A DNA stretch of 64,000 nucleotides from Sphyrna mokarran. Lineage: Eukaryota. The notes under the pieces were generated by a model. It had not been told where the DNA came from, ran no database searches, and saw nothing but the letters and a program-made list of their open reading frames with translations. Position numbers and translations under genes: made by a program. Where the stretch lies: positions 28,210,001 to 28,274,000 of the forward strand of contig JAGIQG010000004.1 of the NCBI GenBank assembly GCA_024679065.1, written 5' to 3'. Shown piece after piece: positions 15,750 through 62,649 of this stretch. Numbering within the stretch: the stretch's first letter is position 1; each line of letters starts with the position of its first letter.

Positions 15750-15960
15750 CTGGGCTAAGTAAAAGAAGTCTCTCAATATCAGGTTAAAGTCCAATAGTTC
15801 TACTTGGTATCACGAGTTTCCAGAGTGCTGCTCCTTCATCAGGTGAAGAGACAGCTGGGCCCACAAACACGGCATATATAGGCAGAGACCCAACCGCGAG
15901 ACAACGGCTGGAATGCAAGTCCTAACAGGTAATCAAGTCTTTACAGGTACAGACAACTTA
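15750..15960 (-). mobile_element. Penelope-like element terminal-repeat fragment with degenerate hammerhead motif
   Basis: Minus strand 15810-15846 reads tcac-CTGATGA-aggagcagcactctg-GAAA-c-TC-gtga; flank aggttaaagtccaa shared with copies at 32425 and 35050. Confidence 0.65.
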
Positions 15961-15989: not shown

Positions 15990-18900
15990 AAGCCTTCAGA
16001 GCATCTTGTAGATGGTACACACTGCTGCCACTGTGGAGGGATTTATTTTTTTAAGATGGTGCATGGAGCACTAGTCAAGTAGGCCAATTTCTCCTGGATG
16101 TTGAACTTCTTGAATATTTGCTGGATAAATCAAATTCCATTTTATTCATTTGTACTTTGGTGGAGATTTTGGAAAGTTGCGACGTAAGTTACTCATCAAT
16201 AGCATACACAGGTTCTGACATCTATGTAACTGGCCTAACTAATTTTCTGGTCAATGGTGGCTTCCCAGGTGTTTGTGGAGTGAGGGATTTGGTTGGGGAG
16301 GGGGGGAGGGATTAATTATGATGATACTGTTGAATATCAAGGGAAAGTGGTTACATTGTTTCTCGGTCATAATAATCACTTGGAAGTTGTGTGATGTCCA
16401 TGTTTCTTGCCACTTATTAGCCCGTCCAAGTTGTCTAAGTTTGCAAATTATGTAATCATCTGTGAATGTCACTGCTTCTGACCTTATAATGGAAGACCCA
16501 CGATGGTTGAAAATCCTTTGGCTTTGTCTTTTGCGCAGATGTGTTGAACTACCCCATCATTGAGGCTGGGGGTAGCCATAGCATTTCCTCTTCTTATTAA
16601 CTGTTTAATTGTCCACCACCATTCATGATTGAATGCTGCAGAGCTTTGGTTCTGGAATGCAAAGAGTGAATTGAGGAGAGCTAAGAGAGGACACGAGAAG
16701 ACTTTGGCTGATAGGATTAAAGAGAATCCTAAAGCTTTCTTTAGATATGTTAAGAATAGAAGATTGGTTAGGGCAAGATTAGGGCCAGTCATAGACAGCA
16801 GTGGGAAGTTGTGCGTGGAGCCTGAAGAGATTGGAGAGACACTGAATAAATATTTCTCTTCGGTATTCACGCAGGGTGATGTAAATGTAGTTGTGGAGAA
16901 CACTGAGGTACAGGGTTGCAAACTGGAAAGTATTGAAGTAGATAGGGAGGATGTGCTAGATATTCTCGAGGGTTTGAAGTTGGATAAGTCCCCTGGGCCG
17001 GACGGGATTTACCCTAGGATTCTCTGGGAGGCAAGAGAGGAGATTGCAGAGCCTCTGGCTCTGATCTTCAGGTCGTCGTTGGTTACGGGTGTGGTTCCGG
17101 AGGACTGGAGGATAGCGAATGTGGTCCCGTTGTTCAAGAAGGGGAAGAGAGACCTTCCAGGGAATTATAGGCCAGTGAGTCTTACTTCTGTTGTGGGCAA
17201 AGTATTGGAGAGAATAATTAGGGATAGGATTTATAGTTATTTAGAGAGAAATGAATTGATTGGGGATAGTCAGCATGGTTTTGTGAAGGGTAGGTCGTGC
17301 CTTACTAACCTCATTGAGTTTTTTGAAAAAGTGACTAAAGAGGTGGATGGGGGTAAGGCGGTTGATGTGGTATATATGGACTTTAGTAAGGCGTTTGATA
17401 AGGTGGCCCATGGAAGACTTCTGCAGAAAATGCAGATGTATGGGATAGAGGGTGATTTAGCTAATTGGGTTAGGAATTGGCTAGCAGATAGAAGACAGAG
17501 GGTGGTGGTTGATGGGAGATATTCATCGTGGAGTTCGGTGACAAGTGGTGTACCTCAGGGGTCTGTTTTGGGGCCCCCGCTGTTTGTAATTTTTATAAAT
17601 GATCTGGATGAGGGTATTGAAGGATGGATTAGTAAATTTGCAGATGACACTAAAGTCGGTGGAGTGGTAGATAGTGAAGAGGGGTGTTATAGTTTGCAGA
17701 GGGACTTGGACAAGTTGCAGAGCTGGGCCGAGAGGTGGCAAATGGAGTTTAATGTGGAAAAGTGAGAGGTAATGCACTATGGCAGAAATAATAAATGTGT
17801 AGAGTATAGGGCTAATGGTAGGATTCTTAGTAGTCTTGATGAACAGAGGGATCTTGGTGTATATGTGCATAGATCCCTGAAAGTAGGCAGTCAAGTCGAG
17901 AAGGTTGTTAAGAAGGCATATGGAGTCTTAGCTTTTATTGGTAGGGGGATTGAATTTCGGAGCCGCAACGTCATGTTGCAACTGTACAAAACTCTAGTGC
18001 GGCCGCACTTGGAGTATTGTGTGCAGTTCTGGTCGCCACATTATAAGAAAGATGTGGAGGCATTGGAGAGGGTACAGAGGAGGTTTACCAGGATGTTGCC
18101 TGGTATGGAGGGCAGGTCTTATGAAGAGAGGCTGAGGGATTTGAGGTTGTTTTCGTTAGAAAGGAGGCGGCTAAGAGGGGACCTTATCGAAACATATAAG
18201 ATGATTAGAGGTTTAGATAGGGTGGACAGTGATAGCCTTTTTCCTAGGATGGAGAAAGCTAGCACGAGGGGACACAGCTTTAAATTAAGGGGTGATAGTT
18301 ATAGGACGGATATCAGAGGTAGGTTCTTTACCCAAAGGGTGGTTCGGGAGTGGAATGCCCTGCCTGCAGCAGTTGTAGATGCGCCAAGTTTGGTGGCGTT
18401 TAAGAGGTTAGTTGATAAGTATATGGAAGAGAAGGGAATGGTTTAGTTTGGAGGGGCATTGCTTTTTATATTGGTCGGCGCAACATCGAAGGCCAAAGGG
18501 CCTGTTCTGTGCTGTAATGTTCTATGTTCTATGTTTTAGCTTTGTCTATTGCATGCTGATTTGGTATTCATATAGTCCTGTGTTATAGCTTCACCAGATC
18601 GGTACCATATTTTTAGATGCATATTTAAGATGCTGTTCTTAGCATATGACTACAACCTCTCTGAACCTGGGTTGATTCTGTGGCTTGATGGTGGAGTGAG
18701 ATTACAGATTGTGGTTGAATACAGTTTTGCTGCTGGTGAGAACCTACAGTGCTTCACGATGCCCAGTTTTAAGCTGCAAGAAATTTATGAATCAATTCAA
18801 TTTAGCGTGCTGGTAATGCCACACCACTTCATCATGAAGGAAGAACTTCATCTCCACAAGGCCTGTGCAGTGGTAGCTCCCACCAGTGCTGTCATGGATA

Positions 18901-30849: not shown

Positions 30850-32420
30850 AACTAGAAGAAAGGCACAGGGGTTTACTGAAGGAGGAGGGCTTCAGATTCT
30901 TGACATAGATTCTGGGGGAGTTGGGATCAGTACAAATGGACAGGTTACATCTGGGCAAGATCAGAATTGATGGTCTTGGACAAATAGTTACTTGTGTGGT
31001 TGGGGAGGGTTTAAACTAGAACGGCAAGGGCTGGGAACCTAAGTAGGGTGAAAGGGGAAACAAACAAAGATAACAAAATCAGTAAAATGCAAAAATAGTA
31101 GACAGGGTAATCAAAGGTGAGAGGCATATAGTGCCTGTGTATGAAAAAAAGTTAGGATGATTAAAAAGGCAAAATTAAAGATTTAGTATCAAAATACATG
31201 AAACATCTGGAATAAGGTAGATGAACTGATGGCGCAAATTGTGGTAAATGGATATGATATCATAGCCATTACAGAGACTTAATTCAAAGGAGATCAAAAT
31301 TGGGAACTTAATAAGCAGGGATGTTTGACCTTTTGAAAACACTATTAATAAACGATTAAATAAATTCTGTTATAAGAAATGATCTGGACTCTGTTTACGT
31401 AGAGTCAATTTGGGTGGAGGTAAAAAAAAAAGCAAGGGACAGAGGATATTGGTAAGAGCAGTACATAAACCCCCAAACAGTAGCCACGTAGTAGGAAAGG
31501 GTAGAAATCAGCAAATAATAGGAACATATAAAAAGAGTGGAGTAGTAACGTAGATGGCTTTCATCTTCATGTTACTGGGTTAATCAAGTTGGAAAGGGTA
31601 GCTAAAGACAACAAATTCACAGAGTACATTAGGGATAGTTTCATATAGCAACATGTCTTAGAGCCACCAGGGAACAGTTTAACTTGGATCGGGTAATGAG
31701 GCAAGTTATTACCTCCAGGAAGTAGTGATCATAACATGACAAAATTTAATATTCTGTTTGAGAGCATGAAGCTTGGGTTTGAAACAATTGTGTTTAACTT
31801 AAATAAAGGGAATTACAATGAAATGAGGATAGAGTTAGCTAAAGTGGTCTGGGCAAATAGATTAGCAGGAAAAACAGTAAGTAAGCAGCAGCAGGCATTT
31901 AAGGAGGTAATTCGTGACTCAGTAAAATTATATCCCAGTAAGGAGGAAAGATTCTAAGAGAGGGATAAACCAACTATGGCTAACTAAGGAAGTTAAGGAG
32001 GTTGAAAGAAAAAGCATTTAAGGAAGTAAAAATCAGTGAAAGCCCAGATAAATTCAGGATCCAGCAAATGAGGACTAAAAAGGATAAAAGAGAAAGAAAA
32101 TAAACTGAGGACAAACTAGCGATAAATATAAAAACTGACAAGAATTACTTTACAGAAGAGAGACATCAAAGTAAACATAGGGGCCTTAGAAAATAAAACT
32201 GGGCAAATAATTATGGGGAATAAGGATATAGCAGAGTTAAACATATACTTTGCATCAGGTTTTACTGTGGAAGATGCTTCACAGTAAGAAGTCCGACAAC
32301 ACCAGGTTTAAGTCCAATCAATTTATTTGATAGTGTATTTGATAGAAGATGCTTCACACAGCCCATTAATACTAAAGAATATGGGAGAGGAATTAACTAC
32401 CATCACTAGAGAAGTAGTAT
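30850..32420 (+). mobile_element. Degenerate CR1 LINE (end of ORF1 and AP endonuclease of ORF2)
   Basis: Remnants gagggtttaaacta (ORF1 end), YDIIAITET, ESIWVEV, SDHN; many stops. Confidence 0.75.
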
Positions 32421-32424
32421 TCTT

Positions 32425-32680
32425 TACTTAAGTCTGTGATTATCCTCGCCACTTGCATTGTCTGTATCTGTAAAGACTCACATTCCAACCATTATCTTGC
32501 AATTGATTTTCAGTCTATATATGCTGTGTTTGTGAAACCTACCTCTCTACTCATTTGATGAAGGCACAGTGCTCTGAATGCTTATGATACAAAATAAACC
32601 TGTTTTTGCACTTTTAATCTGGTATTGTGAGACTTCTTACTTTGTCCATCCCGGTCCAACACCAACATCTCCACATCACG
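32425..32680 (+). mobile_element. Penelope-like element terminal-repeat fragment with decayed hammerhead
   Basis: Similar to 61740-61920; tcatTTGATGAaggcacagtgctctGAATgcttatga at 32551-32587, then aataaacctgtt...gtgagacttcttac. Confidence 0.65.
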
Positions 32681-35049: not shown

Positions 35050-35185
35050 GAAGTGGCGATGCTGGTGTTGGATTGGGGTAAACACAGTAAGAAGTCTCAC
35101 AGCACCAGGTTAAAGTCCAATAGGTTTATTTGGTAGCAAACACTCACTAGCTTTTGGGGCTTTGCCCTTTTGTCAGGTGAGTTAA
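35050..35185 (-). mobile_element. Penelope-like element terminal-repeat fragment with decayed hammerhead
   Basis: acagtaagaagtctcacagcaccaggttaaagtccaataggtttatt; minus strand 35144-35180 reads tcacCTGACAAaagggcaaagccccAAAAgcTAgtga. Confidence 0.65.
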
Positions 35186-35269
35186 AACTGACAGGAACAC
35201 AACCAAAGCAGATATGTGAACAATGTTGTAATTCAAAGGCCATGGGCTGCTTCAGCTTTGATTCACTAT

Positions 35270-36069: not shown

Positions 36070-36720
36070 ATTGTTGTTTTTTTTTCCTTTTTCTTTGCAA
36101 GCGCAATCCCAGCAGTATAACAAAATGTATCAAAGAAGCATATACAAACTCTTATTTCATCTTTTTCTTCTTCCCCAAAGAATCATGCAGCTTGAAGACT
36201 TCTGGCTCAAACAAATCCATAGCTAGGACACCAGGATTCATTGAGGAAATACTCCCTGCTGTATTGATGGTTGGTTTGTCCATCAATTAAAGCCAACTTT
36301 AAGGTCATCAAACCTCTTCAGAGTAAATGAAAGTTGCCAGAAGTCACTGGTCTCTAATCCAGCTGGGTCTTTCTGTATAGCAATTAAAAATATGCTTCTC
36401 TCTTTGTAAGAAATATAAAATGTGAGAATCCCCAGCATAACAAAAAGGACACAGTCTGTAAATACACTCTTTGACTCAGGAAATGGGTCCATGCAGTCCC
36501 AGATAAGGCCAACTATTGCAAAGTCCCAGGAAATTTTGCAAATGAAGAGGAATCTATAATTCTCCTCGTACTTCTCTAGAAGAATCTTTTTGGTGGCAAT
36601 TCCAAGGCATTTTTCACAGTTGCACTATTCCACTTGTCAATGTTAACCGACTTGTAATCGATCTTCAATTTGGAGAGAAAGCTATTCTTGCTGCCCTTCA
36701 CTGCCATCTTATGTCCTCTG
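36070..36720 (-). pseudogene. SPCS2: Processed pseudogene of signal peptidase complex subunit 2
   Basis: ATG at 36707 to TAA at 36152, intronless: [120 protein letters not shown]; frameshifts and deletions; A-rich tail at about 36072-36097. Confidence 0.92.
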
Positions 36721-37760
36721 GGTTTTAAGTAGAGTACGTGAACAATGTAACGGACAAATTTAATCTTTCGTTGGTCCCTGGCAATAGTATCATGGTAACT
36801 ACCAATCCATACAAAGAAATTACTTAATGAGCAACATGAAACAGTTATTAAACTAAAGACAAAGTAAAGGCAAAGCAAAAGTGAATAATATAACTTTTCC
36901 TACTAATGCCAAAAATGCATTAATGTCTCATTGCTGAATGACAGGAAATCTTTAATTTTTTTCATATTGTTTGAGGTAATTAACTCTAACTGTTTTCTTG
37001 TGATTTTCATTTAAGTTCCAATCAGATTTGGTAAGGACATTCTATACAATGCATTGTTGGAGACATAAAATGCTTGAGTGAGACGCTATCCTCTTATTTA
37101 ATTCAATACAATTGCAGCCTGATTCTATAATCTGGCTACACTGTATCAAGGTTCATAGCTTACTTCTGGACCACTGATAACCCTTTTCTGAGATCTACCT
37201 GAGATCTCATTTAGGAATTTGTGATGATAAACCTATTAAACATTGTCTTCTGGTAACTATGCACTATAATAGGTTTAAGTGTGACTGCTTGCACAAACAA
37301 AAGCTTATGAGGTATAAACTTTCACAATCTACAACCCAACAATCTTGTGCTGAATGACTCCCTAGTTAATTTATTATGCTTTATACCACTATAGCTGCAA
37401 TCAACAAACATGTCTTAAAACTATTACATACATAAAATTCAATGTTTTTAGGCACATAACATATATCTTCAGTTGTTGCTGTCAGAATCTTGTTGCAATG
37501 CACTCCAGAACTAAAAACCAAAGATCTTTCAACAGTGAATGCCTGAGGAGTAGCGATACAGTCATCTTCTGTGCTGCAAAAGATTTGATTCATGCCAGTG
37601 AGTTTCTCATCTAAAACACTGACGCATGGAATACCTCGGATGGAGGGACGAGAAAAAGAACAAACAGCTATAATAACTTGGAGCTTGAGAGCAACTTTTG
37701 GGTTAGGGTGGTCTTGATACCACTCTGACTATCCTACATCCATTAATGGTCCCAGCTGTG

Positions 37761-45239: not shown

Positions 45240-45850
45240 TCGCCATGCCTCAGTTTGGGGCACTCGGTGCTCGCAGGCTTAGTGACGCAGTAAGTTCATG
45301 AATAATTCTCAGCGTGCTTATGCAAATGCAGCGCTGCCTGATGCATTATGCATAAGCATATGCAAATCTGCGCGGCTCCCGCTGGCGCGTGTCGGCGGCG
45401 GCGGCGGCCTCTCTCCGGCACAGCGAGCGCTGTCATCATGGCGACGGGAGAAAGCTGAGGAACGCCGAGCAGAGAAAGGCTGCATCGACCTCAGACTGCC
45501 AGCTTCGCCCCCGCCTCCCCCCCTCCCCCCGCTCCGCCCCTCTGGACATTTCTGCTTCTTTTCCCTCGTCAATCTGTTTCGATGCGGCTTTAACCGCAAT
45601 GGCTGAGGTAACATCGCTGGCGATGGAGGCGGGAAAGCGGGCTCCAGACACGGCGGGGCCGGCCAGCGAGGGGAGCGTCCCCGTCCCGGCCCCGGCTCCG
45701 GCTCCGGCTCCGGGCCCCGACGCCGCAGTAACGGCGGAGCCGCTCTCTCCACAGCCCAAGCCCGGCCCCGGATGCGGCTCGAGCTCGGCGGTTGCAGGGA
45801 GGGGAGTGCGCGTCTTAAAGGTAACGCTTCACAGACTGGCTAATATTAAT
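45240..45850 (+). promoter_or_regulatory. PHLPP2: CpG island / promoter and first exon of PHLPP2
   Basis: Only GC- and CpG-rich segment in the window; TGACGCA at 45283; ATGCAAAT at 45320 and 45360; ends at donor AAG|gtaacg (45821). Confidence 0.85.
45599..45820 (+). CDS. PHLPP2: PHLPP2 exon 1 coding part (N-terminal Pro/Ala-rich extension)
   Basis: gcaATGG start; MAEVTSLAMEAGKRAP...GRGVRVLK; phase-0 donor splices in frame to AGG AAC ATG at 48497, giving GVRVLKRNMKRN, similar to my recollection of long mammalian PHLPP2 isoforms (GIRVLKRNMKRN). Confidence 0.78.
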
Positions 45851-48496
45851 TGACCTCTGAAGAAAAGCTGTTCTAATCCTAAACCTACACGTTGATTTTT
45901 TTTTTAAGCGACGCTGCTGCTTTCATTTCACATTTTCCCCCAGAAGAAGTTAATCAGTTACGCTGATCAGTGTATTTGAAGCAATGATTTGTCAATATAT
46001 TGTCGATGGAACGCAGTAGATTCCAGGTGATCGGCTTTCCCCCCTGTCTTTGAGCAGGGTAAACGCAGTAATTTCTTATACTCACACTACCTTTAACTGT
46101 TAATCCCTGATATGGGGAATACAGATACCCTACATTTGTAATTAAAAAAAAATGTACAGTGCATTATTTCCAAACCTACTTTTTACATTTTTTTCATTTC
46201 TGTAAGTTTACTTGTTGCAGTCACATAAAACGAAAGTAAATAGTTGTAAAATGCGTATCTTTCTATTGAGTTGCGCCATCCTCATTTTATGGGGCTCCAG
46301 TATCTTGTTGAACAGTGAAACCCACACCAACTATCAGCGACCAGATGGATCAGCAGATACAGTTAGGGTGTTTCGTCTGACTTGAAAATGTTATTCCAGA
46401 AATCGTCGCCGTTTAAAACATTCTAATGGGATGTTTTATTAACGGAGTCTTGATTGGTGTTTCCAAGACGGGCGATGGCCTTCTAAAATGAGACACCACA
46501 AATGAAAGTGGTCAGCTAAATTCGGTACATGTTCTGTTCCATTAACATTCCTTGTGACTTGACATTCTCACTTGTTTCTTGTTCTCATTAAGTCTGTGAT
46601 AGACAGTTTATTTTGCCTTTCACCTAGTAGTACTGGCCACTTATTTGTTTGTATAATATTTTATAAGGGGTTGGCTATTTAAGTTCACGCAGTGATATCC
46701 TTTAGAAAGATGGGCAACAGACACACTTATGGTCCATGATTTGTGGGCGTTTTAAAACATACGCGGTAGGCTTTTATCATTTCGAGTTGGTGGTATTGCA
46801 AGGTGACAAGAGTGAATCAAGCTATTTAGTGGCTGGACTATTTCATAAGAACTTAATATGTAATTGTTTTAAAGATTTGTACGATGACTGAATATCCTGT
46901 GGTGTTCCTTGTGTGTCAGAGGCTGGTGTTCTAGTACTGCCTTGTTCCCTCCTTTTCTGCCTAAGCCTGTTGTCCTGTTAGATGCTATTTCTTTTATATG
47001 TCTTTGTCTAACAAAACAAATCTTTCAGCATGCTTTCTACCACTATATTGTATTGTAGGATCAGTGATATCACAGTAAGAGCAGTAATAGTGCAGAGGTT
47101 GGATAGCTGCAAATCCAAGGAATTCCTGGAATAGGAAAGGATGGCTTATAAAGTCAGCACTATTCATCGCTGACTTAATTGTGACAGGTACTAAATTTTG
47201 GATTTCTGAGGATTTGTGCAGTGTATAAATTGAATACCTGCCTTTACTGGCATTGAAATGGATTGTCATCAATTGATGACCGAATAATCAACTGTTACAT
47301 TACTTTTGACCAACGGGATGATCAGAAAATAGCATTTATGGATTAATGACACACTTCTCGGTCATGAGATTGCTACTGCATGACAATCCTAGAACCACCA
47401 GTAAGTTATCTCAAAAGTGTTACTCATTTTATATAGACAGTTGTGCTGTCACCTCCCTTTGGTGATTAGGGCTACTGCATTTGTCTAGCCATTACTGCAG
47501 AAGGCAATTGCTGAGCAGTTTAAAATGTACCTTTTATGTCCTTGTAAAACGTAATGTGCATTGCATTCATTCAATATAGGTCAATGTGCCCTAGGTGATG
47601 GGTTTCAATTTAAATGAGCAATGCCATCTGTTTCAGGAATCTTATGGATAGTTAATTCTGGCAAATTGGTAACTTTGGTAAATAATATGTTGTAATTTTC
47701 TCTGCTCTGTAACATTAAAAGATAAATTCTGAGAAATCTGAAGTTTATTGTGATCCAGTTATGTATTTTGAACCATAATGCTGTGCCAGTTCTTTCAATC
47801 CTAGAAAGGGATCTTGCAAGATGTTTTATCTGGTTAAATTTGTCCTTCCTATGTAGACAATAGTGTTCAATTTCAGATTGATTGACTTTACTCTTAATCA
47901 GATTTACATTCTTGGCAATTTATAACCCTGTTATGCGAGTTTGTCATGTTTTAATGCATTTTGGAAGTGCAGATGGTGGTGTTTTGATTGCTATCAAGGT
48001 TTCATTTTCCTTCATTGCTTTTTTTTAAATTTACTGTTCGTGTGGGGAGGAAAAAAACATTTTGTGTTGTAAAATGCTTTTCTTTTCAAGTGGGGAAATT
48101 AAAATGTTTATGAATAGATGAATTTGTTGGAATAAAGAAAAATGAAGTTGAGTAAGTCTACGGTGTAAATAGATTATAGACCCCCAATTCAGAAATGTGA
48201 TGGAATAAATGCTTGGGATGTATTGAAATTCTTCATATTTCAGTGGTAAATAATACATGACTCAAATCTCAGCTCATGAAAGCTATTTCTGTCTTGCATT
48301 CATTATTGTTGTCTGAAATTCTATTAAATAGATTATTTTATGTTGCAACTTGTGTGCATTTAATTTCACACCAAAGCTTAGGCCATGTGGTTCAATTATC
48401 CTAACTATTTCCATCTAAATTTTAGTTTGAATCTTAATCTGAGCTGTGTGTAGTAATTTGCATTCTGATGCATGTTTTCAATCCTTCCTTTCACAG

Positions 48497-48810
48497 AGGA
48501 ACATGAAACGCAATGCCAGCAGGAGTTGCCTCGGAAAGAAGAGTAGTCTGGGTGTACGAGAGAAAGAGTGGCTGAAAGGGGACATACGAAGGGGATGTAT
48601 ATGTATTCACGGAAAGGAGATGGTGTCATTGAATGCTTCTTCCTCCACCTCTTCCCCGAGTACATTACTGTCATCTTTATCATGCTCTTCCTCCTCATCA
48701 TCTGGCCCGGACCTGCAGCTAGTACTCTGCAGTACTGAAACCACAACAACAGAGCTGTGTACTCAGGATAAGGATAACCTTTACCTGCAACTCCATGGTG
48801 ATCTCATCAG
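48497..48810 (+). CDS. PHLPP2: PHLPP2 exon 2 (canonical ATG at 48503; Ser-rich tract, start of Ras-association-like region)
   Basis: RNMKRNASRSCLGKKSSLGVREKEWLKGDIRRGC...DLQLVLCSTET...LYLQLHGDLIR; acceptor ctttcacag, donor AG|gtaggg. Confidence 0.95.
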
Positions 48811-50159: not shown

Positions 50160-52900
50160 CAGCATAGAACACTACAGCGCAGAACAGGCCCTTCGGCCCT
50201 CGATGTTGCGCCAACCAATTAGGAACAAGCAGTGACCCTCTAAACCATTCCCTTTTCATCCATAAACTTATCTACTAACCTCATAAACGCCACCAAACTT
50301 GGCGCATCTACAACTGACGCAGGCAAGGCATTCCATACCCTTACCACCCTCTGGGTAAAGAACCTACCTCTGACATCTGTCCTAAAACCACCACCCCTTA
50401 ATTTAAAGCTATGTCCCCTCGTGCTAGCTGTCTCCATCCTAGGAAAAAGGCTATCACTGTCCACCCTATCTAAACCTCTAATCATCTTATATGTTTCAAT
50501 AAGGTCTCCTCTTAGCCGCCTTCGTTCTAACGAAAACAACCTCAAATCCCTCAGCCTCTCTTCATAAGACCTGCCCTCCATACCAGGCAACATCCTGGTA
50601 AACCTCCTGTGTACCCTCTCCAATGCCTCCACATCTTTCTTATAATGTGGGGACCAGAACTGCACACAATACTCAAGTGCGGCCGCACTAGAGTTTTGTA
50701 CAGTTGCAACATGACGTTGCGGCTCCGAAATTCAATCCCCCACCAATAAAAGCTAAGACTCCATATGCCTTCTTAACAACCTTCTCGACTTGACTGCCTA
50801 CTTTCAGGGATCTATGCACACACACACCAAGATCCCTCTGTTCATCTAGACTACTAAGAATCCTACCATTAGTCCTATACTCTACACATTTATTATTCCT
50901 GCCAAAGTGCATTACCTCACACTTTTCCACATTAAACTCCATTTGCCACCTCTCGGCCCAGCTCTGCAAATTGTCCAAGTCTCTCTGCAAACTATAACAC
51001 CCCTCTTCACTATCTACCACTCCACCGACTTTAGTGTCATCTGCAAATTTACTAATCCATCCTTCAATACCCTCATCCAGATCATTTATAAAAATTACAA
51101 ACAGCAGGGGCCCCAAAACAGATCCCTGAGGTATACCACTAGTAACCGAACTCCACGATGAATATCTCCCATCAACCACCACCCTCTGTCTTCTATCTGC
51201 TAGCCAATTCCTAATCCAATTAGCTAAATCACCCTCAATCCCATACATCTGCATTTTCTGCAGAAGCCGTCCATGTGCCACCTTATTGAATGCCTTACTA
51301 AAGTCCATATATACCACATCAACTGCCTTACCCCCATCCACCTCTTTGGTCACTTTTTCCAAAAACTCAATAAGGTTAGTAAGGCACAACCTACCCTTCA
51401 CAAAACCATGCTGACTATCCCCAATCAATTCATTTCTCTCTAAATAAATATAAATCCTATCCCTAATAATTCTCTCCAATACTTTGCCCACAACAGAAGT
51501 AAGACTCACTGGCCTATAATTCCCTGAAAGGTCTCTCTTCCCCTTCTTGAACAATGGGACCACATTCGCTATCCTCCAGTCCTCCGGAACCACACCCGTA
51601 ACCAACGACGACCTGAAGATCAGAGCCAGAGGCTCTGCAATTGCCTCTCTTGCCTCCCAGAGAATCCTAGGGTAAATCCCGTTCGGCCCAGGGGACTTAT
51701 CTAACTTCAAACCCTCAAGAATATCTAGCACATCCTCCTTATCTACTTCAATACTTTCCAGTTTGCAAACCTGTATCCCAGTGTTCTCCACAACTACATT
51801 TACATCTCCCTGCGTGAATACCGAAGAGAAATATTTGTTCAGTGTCTCTCCAATCTCTTCAGGCTCCACGCACAACTTCCCACTGCTGTCTCTGACTGGC
51901 CCTAATCTTGCCCTAACCAATCTTCTATTCTTAACATATCTAAAGAAAGCTTTAGGATTTTCCTTGATCCTATCAGCCAAAGTCTTCTTGTGTCCCCTTT
52001 TAGCTCTCCTCAACTCACTCTTTAGCTCCCTCCTGGCTAATCTATAGCTATCCATTGCACTAACTGAGCCTTCAAGCCTCATTCTGACATAAGCCTCCTT
52101 TTTCCTTTTAACCAGCGAATTAACTTTTTTAGTACACCATGGTTCCCTTACTCGACCATTTCCTCCTTGCCTGACAGGGACATACTTATCAAGGACTCGC
52201 AGTAGCTGCTCCTTGAATAAGCTTCACATTTCAGATGTTCCCAGTCCCTGTAGTTTCCTAGTCCAACCTATGCACCCTAATTCCCTCCTTATGGCTTCAT
52301 AATTACCATTCCCCCAGCTATAACTACTGCCCCCAGCATCATGCCTATCCCTATCCATCACTAAGGTGAACGTAACCGAATTGTGGTCACTATCACCAAA
52401 ATGTTCACCAACTTCCAAGCCTAACACCTGGTCTGGCTCATTGCTCAGCACCAAATCCAATGTAGCCTCACCTCTAGTTGGCCTATCTACATACTGAGTC
52501 AAAAAAACCTTCCTGCACACTTTGTACAAAAACTGACCCCTCTAATGAGCTAGAGCTATAGCTATTCCAATCAATATTAGTAAAGTTAAAGTCCCCCATA
52601 ACAATTACCTTATTACTTTCACTCTTGTCCAGGATCGACTTTGCAATCCTTTCCTCTACCTCTCTAGAACTTTTAGGAGGTCTATAAAAGACTCCCAACA
52701 GGGTGACCTCTCTTCTCCTGTTTCTAATCTCAGCCCATACTACCTCAACAGACAAGTCCTCATCAAACTTCCTTTCTGTCACTGTGATACAGTCTTTAAC
52801 TAATAATGCCACTCCTCCCCCCCTTCTACCTCCTTCTCTACTCTGACTGAAGCATTTGAACCCCGGAACCTGCAACAACCATTCCTGTCCCTGCTCTATC
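50160..52900 (-). mobile_element. Young CR1 LINE, near-complete ORF2 (APE plus RT) with frameshifts, antisense in PHLPP2 intron 2
   Basis: ORFs 52483-52905, 52224-52529, 50688-52082 and 50240-50665: GGGVALLV, MGDFN, SDHN, KFADDTK; nearly identical to 16660-18534. Confidence 0.97.
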
Positions 52901-52989
52901 GTCAAAAGTCGTCAAAACTATAGAAGTTTTGACGACTTGGTGTATTATGTACAAGATTACAACAGCTGTCCAAGCTTTCTTCAACTATA

Positions 52990-59410: not shown

Positions 59411-59493
59411 TTAACACTTTCTTTCTAGATCTTACACGTGTTCAAAGTAATTGTCTTATTCTTAATACTATTTTCAACATTTTTTGTTTCTAG

Positions 59494-59627
59494 GAGAATG
59501 AATCCTGATGAGAAACCTCTGCAAATCCTTTACGATTATCTGACTGGACTAGGTTTCCAGGATCCAGTGCGGATACAAGAGGAAGGAGCCATGGCTGATC
59601 TGAGCTGCATGATCAGATACTTTCATG
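59494..59627 (+). CDS. PHLPP2: PHLPP2 exon 3
   Basis: Acceptor ttgtttctag; [44 protein letters not shown](G); donor G|gtagga; 134 nt; phase matches exon 2. Confidence 0.95.
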
Positions 59628-60159
59628 GTAGGATTTCATGTGCTGGCTGTTTAAAAATTTCTGGGAGCAAGGGATTTAATTAATGTTTTTATTTCTTCAA
59701 TCTGGAAAAGGTTTTAAAAGTCCAATCATCAGTGGTTGGCTTGTGCACATTAAACCATTGTAATTCAGCAATGTGGTAGGACAGAAAGTTTTCAACCAAA
59801 TACTTGGACTATTAGACTCTATCTTGTCAGCCATTGCACACTCCTGCCTGTTAGGGTTGAATTTTATTACTACTTTGTCAGATCGTTAATTTTGCTTTGC
59901 TAGAGTGGCATGTTACCTTTTGGGAGAGGTAAAGTGAAGCTCTTGTCAGCTGATCATCATTAAATAGCATTCACGGTCATGGAAATGTTCGTGTAGGTGA
60001 ATGGAGTCATCGCAATGTGCTTCACAGCCAATTAGATGCAATTAGGAGATGTCAAACTGGTAGGGGAACACACAAGTACCTGCAGCAGTGCCTTTTCTTT
60101 TATTTACTGGTGCAATACATATTGGAATGGTGTCAGGGAAAATTGGCACCATGGGTATC

Positions 60160-61920
60160 GGTACAAAGAACCCCCAGGTTTTGTCTTGACACTACGGACT
60201 TCCTACAGAAACTCAGCACACATGGAGCAGTTGAACCAGGGACACTCCTTGTCACAATGGATGTCTCGGCGCTCTACACCAACACCCCCCACGACGATGG
60301 TATTACTGCAACTGCCTCAGTACTCAATGCCAATAACTGCCAGTTTCCGGATGCAATTTTACAACTCGTCCGCTTCATCTTGGACCACAATATCTTCACC
60401 TTCAACAATCAGCTTTTCATCCAGACACATGGAACAGCCATGGGGACCAAATTCGCACCTCAGTATGCCAACATCTTCATGCATAGGTTCGAACAAGACT
60501 TCTTCACTACACGAGATCTTCAACCAAGGTTATATACTAGATACATTGATGACATCTTTTTCCTTTGGACTCATGGTGAACAATTATTGAAACAACTGTA
60601 TGATGATATCAACAAGTTCCATCCCACCATCAGACTCACCATGGACTATTCTCCAGAATCAGTTGCATTCTTGGACACGCATCTCCATCAAGGACGGTCA
60701 CCTCAGCACCTCACTACCACAAACCGACAGACAACCTCACAATGCTCCACTTCTCCAGCTTCCACCCTAGACACGTTTAAGAAGCCATTCCCTATGGACA
60801 AGCCCTCTGTATACACAGAATTTGCTCAGACAAGGAGGATCGTGACAGACACCTCCAGACGCTGAAGAATGCCCTCGTGAGAACAGGATATGGCGCTCGA
60901 CTCATCTATCGACAGTTCCGACGTGCCACAGCGATAAACCGCACTGACCTCCTCAGAAGATGGACATGGTGGACAGAATACCCTTTGTTGTCCAGTACTT
61001 CCCCGGAGCAGAGAAGCTACGACATCTTCTCTGGAGTCTTCAACATATCATTGATGACGATGAACATCTTGCTAGGGCCATCCCCACCCCCCCACTTCTT
61101 GCTTTCAGACAACCGCACAACCTCAACAGATCATTGTTCGCAGCAAACTACCCAACCTTCAGGAGAACAGTGACCACAATACCACACAACCCTGCCACAG
61201 CAACCTCAGCAAGACATGCCAGATCATAGATATGGACGACATCATCAAACGTGAGGATACCATTCACCAGGTACACGGTACATACCCTTGCAACTCGGCC
61301 AACGTTGTCTACCTAATACGTTGCAAGAAAGGATGTCCTGAAGCATGGTACATTGGGGAGACCGTGTAGACACTACGACAGCGGACGAATGAGCATCGCT
61401 CAACAATCACCAGGCAAAACAGTTCCCTTCCTGTGGGCGAACACTTCAGCAGTCATGGACATTCGGCTCTGACCTGCGGGTAAATGTTCTTCAAGGGGGC
61501 CTTCGTGACACACGACAGCACAGAGTTGCTGAGCAGAGACTGATAGCCAAGTTCCGCACACATGAGGACGGTCTTAATAGGGATCTTGGCTTCATGACAC
61601 ACTATCTGTAACCCCCGTAACTTGCCTGGGTTAGCAAAAAACCTCACTTACTGTGCTGTCTGGAGAAAATACACAATTCTCTAACCAATGCTCAGGATTC
61701 CCTTCACACACATTGTTAGCCACTTTAACACTTGAATAGCAGGTTAGATGTAAGGATTCGCATTCTAATCAGTAATCTGTGACTGTCTGTGTTGATATAT
61801 GTGCTATTGCAGACCAGAACACTGCATTTGCCTGACGAAGACACAGTGTCGAAAGCTCGCAAATTTACTATCAAGTAAATCGGTTGGATTTAAAATTGAT
61901 GTTGCTAGATTCTTACTGAG
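60160..61920 (+). mobile_element. Penelope-like retroelement (RT plus GIY-YIG endonuclease), 5'-truncated and frameshifted
   Basis: LVTMDVSALYTN, QTHGTAMGTKFAPQYANIFM, RYIDDIF; GIY-YIG NVVYLIRCKKGCPEAWYIGET at about 61301-61363; 3' terminal repeat with hammerhead. Confidence 0.93.
61826..61864 (+). ncRNA. Minimal type I hammerhead ribozyme motif
   Basis: atttgc-CTGACGA-a-gaca(cag)tgtc-GAAA-gc-TC-gcaaat: intact core, 6-bp stem I, 4-bp stem II, palindromic AGCU stem III. Confidence 0.75.
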
Positions 61921-62649
61921 TTCTCTCGGCTCAGAGTGCCATTGTCAGATTTGTATTTCTCTCACCAATAATCAGATTCTAGGGTAAGAAATATTTAGTC
62001 GGAAACTGAAATAAGAGCACAAAACACAAAGTGCAGATACTAGTCAATGTTTGGAGAAAAGGAAAGATTTACATTTTGGTTCCTGGTCCATTTCTAATGT
62101 AGTTATATTAAGATTGCTCAAACTAATTTGATGTCAAATTTGTAAATCTAGGAGCATAAGACATTGAAAGCAAAGTGTGCTAATCCACTGTGCTATACAG
62201 CTTCGTTTTTATCTAATTTCTGTACTGTATGCAGTTGATCACAAATTAACAACCTGTCCACAGGATACCACAGTTCTAATAACATTACATCTGACAAGAT
62301 TTGCATTTTCATTTCAAGGTCTGCCCAAGTATATAGCATGAAATAGTACCTGGGTGGCAAATTTAGCCCAAATCCACTATGTGTTTTGAGTAAGGTCCTT
62401 GAAGTGGAGTAGTAATTATTTTGTAACTGAAAACTGGAATTGACATGCAGCTTATTTCGGAATAAGTAAGTATTTGTTGTGCGCTGACTTACTTCCCTTT
62501 TTTCTCTCTCATGAAACTGACAATTGAATATTGCTGAGAAAAGGCATACTATGTAGAAACTGGAAACAAGAGTAGGCCTTTGAGTCTGGCAAATCATCAA
62601 ATTCAATATTCCAATTCCCCCCCCTCCCCCCAGTATCTAATTTCTTGAA

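Follow-up and report, generated by a model that had tools for sequence, protein, structure and literature searches.

A minimal type I hammerhead motif in intron 3 of PHLPP2 is most probably the hammerhead of the 3' pseudo-LTR (pLTR) of a young, truncated Penelope-like retrotransposon (PLE). It likely is a passenger in this gene, with PHLPP2 pre-mRNA not being cut to a meaningful extent. The probability of this reading was put at about 0.88, and nothing suggests a host role. The motif lies in a window of 64,000 nt from Sphyrna mokarran, the whole stretch of DNA analysed. Scans covered 224 kb, comprising the window and 160 kb downstream; positions termed extended count on beyond the window.

Structure of the motif and other pseudo-LTR ends

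The hammerhead motif at 61826-61864 (+) matched the first-pass annotation base for base in a direct sequence check. Evidence for it came from the sequence, a structured scan, genome counts and covariation. Stem I was formed by ATTTGC (61826-61831) and GCAAAT (61859-61864) with six Watson-Crick pairs. The core CTGACGA (CUGACGA in RNA; 61832-61838) was followed by an extra unpaired A (61839) between A9 and G10.1, by stem II with four pairs (GACA-CAG-TGTC, 61840-61850) and by GAAA (61851-61854). A 2-nt GC insert (61855-61856) preceded UC (TC in DNA, 61857-61858), placing the predicted scissile bond at 61858/61859, and positions 61854-61857 formed the palindrome AGCU. The described anatomy of a 6-bp stem I, a 4-bp stem II, a GC insert and an AGCU palindrome was confirmed in full; the unpaired A61839 had been absent from the first-pass annotation. 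The region 61840-61850 can also be read as GACAC-A-GTGTC, a loop-contracted form of the stem II GACAC-AGA-GTGTC of sister subfamilies.

Minimal hammerheads in the pLTRs of metazoan PLEs were described by Cervera and De la Pena in 2014 (PMC4209133). Their core CUGANGA ... GAAA ... UH was present in the intron 3 motif, together with the hallmark nucleotide between 9 and 10.1 (A61839) and the G10.1-C11.1 pair (G61840-C61850). The palindromic 15.1-16.1 segment was present and a monomeric helix III was absent. With the four hallmarks given in that paper and all sequence-level features found, and with a location in a PLE pLTR, the motif is classed as a member of this group, and its annotation as a Penelope-type minimal type I hammerhead proved correct. 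Stem II comprises 7-8 bp in the Schistosoma families covered by the 2014 paper, compared with 4 bp here.

The motif was the sole match with at least four pairs each in stem I and stem II in the structured scan of both strands of the 224 kb. The Rfam hammerhead models, suggested earlier as a check, gave no match at gathering score across the window and none at E≤10 in 61600-62100. The folding energy of the isolated 61-mer was no better than that of shuffled sequences (z 0.10). As Rfam and folding energy were silent, the case for a hammerhead rests on context and on the comparison of copies.

Five pLTR ends were found in the window, with an intact core only in 61796-61891 (+). Damaged hammerheads were present at 35114-35190 (-), belonging to another family, with CUGACAA and with AAAA instead of GAAA, at 32519-32604 (+), with UUGAUGA and GAAU, and at 15787-15878 (-), with GGAAAC and an imperfect stem II. 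In sequence comparison, 32311-32335 (-) held the pLTR tail without a hammerhead core. The intron 3 motif is, as first noted, the one undamaged copy of five, which is explained by its origin from a young family.

Further decayed pLTR ends were observed at extended 100.5 kb (-), 108.5 kb (+/-), 128.6 kb (-), 182.3 kb (+) and 199.3 kb (-) (L038-L045 region, the first two in L034-L035). Those in PHLPP2 introns with recognisable cores, at 100.5 kb and 128.6 kb, were both antisense, numbers too small to speak of a bias. A second sense-strand hammerhead core was not found in intron 3 by structured scan and pLTR comparison. Two sense-strand ends were rejected as cis partners: the remnant at extended 108.5 kb is situated in intron 4 and lacks a core, and the 182.3 kb (+) end differs in its stem I and is located past the coding sequence.

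The Penelope-like insertion and the PHLPP2 intron

The hammerhead is part of a 5'-truncated Penelope-like insertion at 60161-61924 (+), delimited by sister copies and flanks. Inspection of the flanks revealed no 5' pLTR, no inverted partner and no obvious target-site duplication, and the element body had no second copy within 224 kb. Sister loci aligned to 60161-61924 mostly at 92-98%, with 94-96% for three loci spanning the whole element. A genome search with 61590-61900 returned 2,384 candidates, of which 40 were scored and proved 97-100% identical. The insertion is judged to be young. Truncation at the 5' end occurred in the family, and many sister copies had variable 3' tails and inverted partial copies, both of which have been described for PLEs (PMC8557442).

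Positions 60161-61590 (+) comprised the broken remnant of an ORF with reverse transcriptase (RT), linker and GIY-YIG-type endonuclease (EN), recognised from Pfam, translations and sister copies. The RT fragment matched PF00078 (E=1.9e-8), and no GIY-YIG match was obtained in the remnant with Pfam. Endonuclease-like motifs (VVYLIRC...YIGET) were seen by eye after the RT in translations of the broken frames. The frame was disrupted by several frameshifts, apparent as indels relative to sister copies, and by an in-frame TAG at 61367. Of 20 copies sampled, 19 had a CX4CxxC linker; in the intron 3 copy, one Cys is replaced by Ser. A CX2-5CxxC linker between RT and EN marks Neptune/Nematis and is absent in Penelope/Poseidon (PMC8557442). 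Because of the CX4CxxC linker between RT and EN in its family, the insertion likely belongs to the Neptune/Nematis side rather than to Poseidon.

The 3' pLTR with hammerhead and conserved tail extended from 61591 to 61924 (+), as defined by genome search and sister copies. The polyadenylation-like hexamer AATAAA of the family, kept in 36 of 37 sister copies and in 71 of 87 related motifs, has become AGTAAA in the intron 3 copy (61874-61879, 16 nt past the predicted cut). Its loss in a sense copy could hint at sensitivity of the host locus to such signals, or be due to chance; a single base change in a single copy does not discriminate between the two.

The exon at 48503-48805 showed an 88-93% match to shark proteins named PHLPP2 or PHLPP2-like, and the best-matching shark protein (P0001) could be placed on the + strand in 18 segments between 48494 and extended 159,469. 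PHLPP2 exon 1 (45521-45818, +, 5' end approximate) was supported by two transcript-like contigs, X6 record 16, which joins it to 48495, and X1 record 1. Exon 2 (48496-48808, +) was supported by contigs, protein match and protein mapping, and exon 3 (59492-59628, +), carrying the RA domain, by PF23010 (E=1.7e-8), contigs and protein mapping. Comparison of exons 2 and 3 with PDB sequences gave no relevant match. Contig X6 record 16 links 45529-45818, 48495-48807 and 59491-59628, the last two of which are also linked by X1 record 2. According to protein mapping, the next exon begins near extended 103,370. Intron 3 starts after 59628 and is ~43.7 kb long, and the hammerhead is located 2.2 kb inside its start and ~41.5 kb before its end. 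The hammerhead is on the sense strand of PHLPP2 intron 3, provided there is no additional upstream exon. Exon matches, protein mapping and contig joins upheld the sense orientation given in the first-pass annotation.

A transcript-like contig of 9,093 nt contained exons 2 and 3 without differences, skipped intron 2 and included none of the sequence of intron 3 next to exon 3. It shows that PHLPP2 gives rise to long spliced transcripts, so that at least some molecules survive, at whatever level. No listed contig bridged the junction 61924/61925, and 61942-62247 was uncovered in four of four runs; contigs of this kind show presence only.

Other features of the window were a frameshifted, apparently intronless remnant of SPC25/SPCS2 (signal peptidase subunit) at 36286-36899 (-; PF06703, E=3e-8), likely a processed pseudogene, and a pair of closely related LINE insertions of young age at 16629-18446 (+) and 50240-52911 (-), in which long RT frames matched PF00078. 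The LINE copies presumably are of the CR1/L2 type, and that at 50240-52911 lies antisense in PHLPP2 intron 2.

Copy number, covariation and truncation points

The exact 31-mer of the motif, searched with C or T allowed at position 7, was present in 207 copies genome-wide, and its reversed control in none. Inverted pairs were frequent among the 207 copies; L003 and L026 (G000:C1326, ~100.41 Mb), for instance, belong to one locus in which two exact hammerheads are inverted relative to each other. The core pattern CCTGANGAAG-N10-22-CGAAAGCT had 25,128 genome-wide matches, one per 110 kb, compared with one match for the control. The subfamily of the intron 3 copy itself has a 9-nt spacer and is left out of this count. 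When any dinucleotide was allowed as the insert, 28,011 matches were obtained, 90% of which (25,128) had the GC that makes AGCU. The 2014 paper gives ~4,000 motifs for coelacanth and ~9,000 for Xenopus, in contrast to at least 25,128 for one pattern here, search methods being different (PMC4209133).

From 90 loci, drawn from the first 100 listed matches and all on one contig, 87 distinct motifs were obtained. A cleavable triplet together with at least five pairs in stem I and at least four in stem II was found in 21 of the 87. By extrapolation (21/87 x 25,128), ~6,000 equally intact copies were estimated genome-wide. Among 37 sister motifs, a sample biased to close relatives from which L001 and the duplicate L026 were excluded, 26 kept the core and 12 had the identical 39-mer. 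With sister copies ~94-98% identical and 12 of 37 sister motifs unchanged, the intact look of the intron 3 copy is attributed to the young age of the insertion.

Compensatory changes were well above shuffled controls for pairs 2-4 of stem II and pair 2 of stem I. In the 87 motifs, stem II pair 3 was Watson-Crick in 72 cases compared with 37 after shuffling (C-G 47, A-U 19, G-C 6), stem II pair 4 in 46 compared with 23, and stem I pair 2 in 70 compared with 40. No other stem I pair exceeded the shuffles in this set, pair 5 lying at the border, and the search pattern itself set the first pair in both stems. In slid controls, stem II reached 0.31-0.60 instead of 0.96, and stem I 0.30-0.36 instead of 0.79. 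The P values for covariation overstate independence because the copies are related. The covariation expected of a genuine family was thus found across related families, strongest for these same pairs. As stems I and II covary, the fold was selected in transposon lineages, which says nothing on the intron 3 copy itself.

Start positions of truncated copies were compared with the predicted cut site. Tail copies without GAA in register numbered 1,562, versus 33,723 with GAA. The start-site sample consisted of 90 loci, i.e. the first 100 listed matches minus ~8 skipped ones, mostly visible small-deletion copies. It gave 95 rows, including some duplicates from overlapping loci, and 91 after four flagged deletions were dropped. 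Starts at the predicted cut site amounted to 9 of 91 (expected 7.6%, P=0.25) in this small sample from one family group, and to 3 of 43 among copies without inversion (P=0.64). A weak excess was seen at +2 relative to the predicted cut, on its downstream side, with 13 of 43 starts (loci L137-L226). After dropping a duplicate and two deletions it was ~10 of 40, with P=0.006 before correction for 14 positions. About half of the truncated pLTR stubs had an inverted copy of their own sequence attached.

Dimer formation and the role of the motif in PHLPP2

Helix III is impossible in the monomer because the 2-nt insert cannot close a hairpin. Judging from the topology, the active form would be a dimer that shares AGCU and exchanges the stem I strands. 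Since the dimer swaps stem I strands, a partner needs a compatible stem I, and 15 of the 87 sampled motifs had one able to swap with that of the intron 3 copy. In the tandem pLTR-ORF-pLTR RNA of the transposon, a 4-bp helix III (AGCU) would form between two hammerheads, which would swap their stem I strands. This dimer, probably aided by the protein of the element, would cut after C17.

Nearest-neighbour energies, which leave out Mg2+, tertiary contacts and proteins, were -13.1 kcal/mol for the active dimer and -16.9 kcal/mol for two monomer ensembles, the dimer being 3.8 kcal/mol less stable. The minimum-energy dimer (-26.0 kcal/mol) had stem II swapped and helix III absent. The nearly palindromic stem II is predicted to favour this inactive, stem-II-swapped dimer. 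In local context, the pairing probability of stem I was 0.0-0.48, varying with the folding window.

Published activities are low. Single minimal hammerheads showed no detectable cleavage and dimers low cleavage (PMC4209133), and a preprint reports high cleavage in just one of nine dimers tested (10.64898/2026.07.22.740005). For the Anolis PLE, hammerhead cleavage is reported to need the PLE protein and to be dispensable for insertion in vitro, and RNA-seq revealed no ends at its site (PMC11167929); a review agrees with these results (PMC6765202). According to the same preprint, tandem retrozymes are depleted from Xenopus introns. Since the PLE hammerheads in the literature either show no activity by themselves or depend on the protein of the element, the uncut state is the most likely one. 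The solitary intron 3 copy would be transcribed with the intron, left uncut because it has no cis partner and no protein of its own, and degraded with the intron. The earlier suggestion that it might cut the intron or pair in trans is unsupported, with no partner in intron 3 and a trans dimer predicted to be unfavourable. Several points speak against the passenger reading. With core and stems intact, cleavage is chemically possible given a partner or chaperone, and slow cleavage would have time because the splice acceptor of intron 3 is ~41.5 kb downstream. The lost AATAAA and the depletion of retrozymes from Xenopus introns also count on this side.

Known systems share some of these features. 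The Anolis Poseidon element PAc likewise is a vertebrate PLE with a pLTR hammerhead upstream of a variable 3' tail (PMC11167929). The shark element differs in its CX4CxxC linker and in the broken ORF of the intron 3 copy. Amniote intronic hammerheads, in RECK and other genes, are also type I and sense intronic; they show conservation among amniotes and activity when assayed (PMC6155905, PMC10761166). The shark motif, in contrast, is of the minimal dimer type in a young high-copy repeat and lacks the cis-folding monomeric helix III of the RECK type, and the young age of its family speaks against conservation at the orthologous intron. Non-LTR retrozymes are related to PLE pLTRs and carry type I hammerheads, with one cartilaginous fish reported (10.64898/2026.07.22.740005). 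They form tandem arrays that supply a cis partner; the intron 3 copy was single within 224 kb, without tandem units each bearing a hammerhead, and is attached to an RT-EN remnant. No publication on Penelope hammerheads in sharks was found in an incomplete coverage of the literature, apart from the one cartilaginous fish in that preprint; supplements of the 2014 paper may list further cases (PMC4209133).

The motif may be normally silent and be cut once the protein of the family or plentiful family RNA is present, as might be the case in germ cells, through protein-assisted folding or trans dimers, with PHLPP2 output slightly lowered as a side effect. The intact core, the 15 stem-I-compatible motifs and the protein-assisted cleavage of the Anolis element (PMC11167929) are in line with this, as is the abundance of family sequence in RNA-type contigs, which carry no strand information. 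However, the trans dimer was predicted to be unfavourable even at 1 M standard state, starts at the cut site were not enriched, and the Anolis work reports no RNA-seq ends at the site. Such conditional cutting was considered unlikely.

A domesticated intronic ribozyme that regulates PHLPP2, comparable to the conserved RECK intron hammerheads of amniotes, was rated very improbable. Domestication of intronic hammerheads has precedent (PMC6155905), and the motif is sense, early in the intron and intact in its core. However, it lies in a young insertion, shows no sign of better preservation than its sister copies and has no monomeric helix III. With an estimated ~6,000 equally intact copies genome-wide, intact sense intronic copies are expected often. 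Contigs of another species (X6) did not cover 61806-61941 at 96% likeness, a weak point as contigs show presence only. A chance match to a short motif, with which the silence of Rfam and the folding z value would agree, is the least probable reading and was effectively ruled out by the copy numbers of the exact 31-mer (207, control 0) and of the core pattern (25,128, control 1), by the fixed position in the PLE pLTR and by covariation. The reading of the motif as a passenger pLTR hammerhead is preferred over all of these.

A wider and speculative proposal is that intact Penelope hammerheads compatible with one another exist by the thousand in shark genomes, many of them intronic, which would be switched on by the transposon protein to cut host pre-mRNAs such as that of PHLPP2, and that the resulting genome-wide RNA-cutting burden would have shaped the orientation of insertions in genes. 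The odds of this were regarded as slim, below those of conditional cutting at PHLPP2 and above those of domestication. The single locus matters little, since equivalent copies of this motif type, described in 2014, number in the thousands. The scale is useful: a vertebrate genome with at least 25,000 hammerheads of intact core would allow a well-powered test of PLE hammerhead cleavage in vivo.
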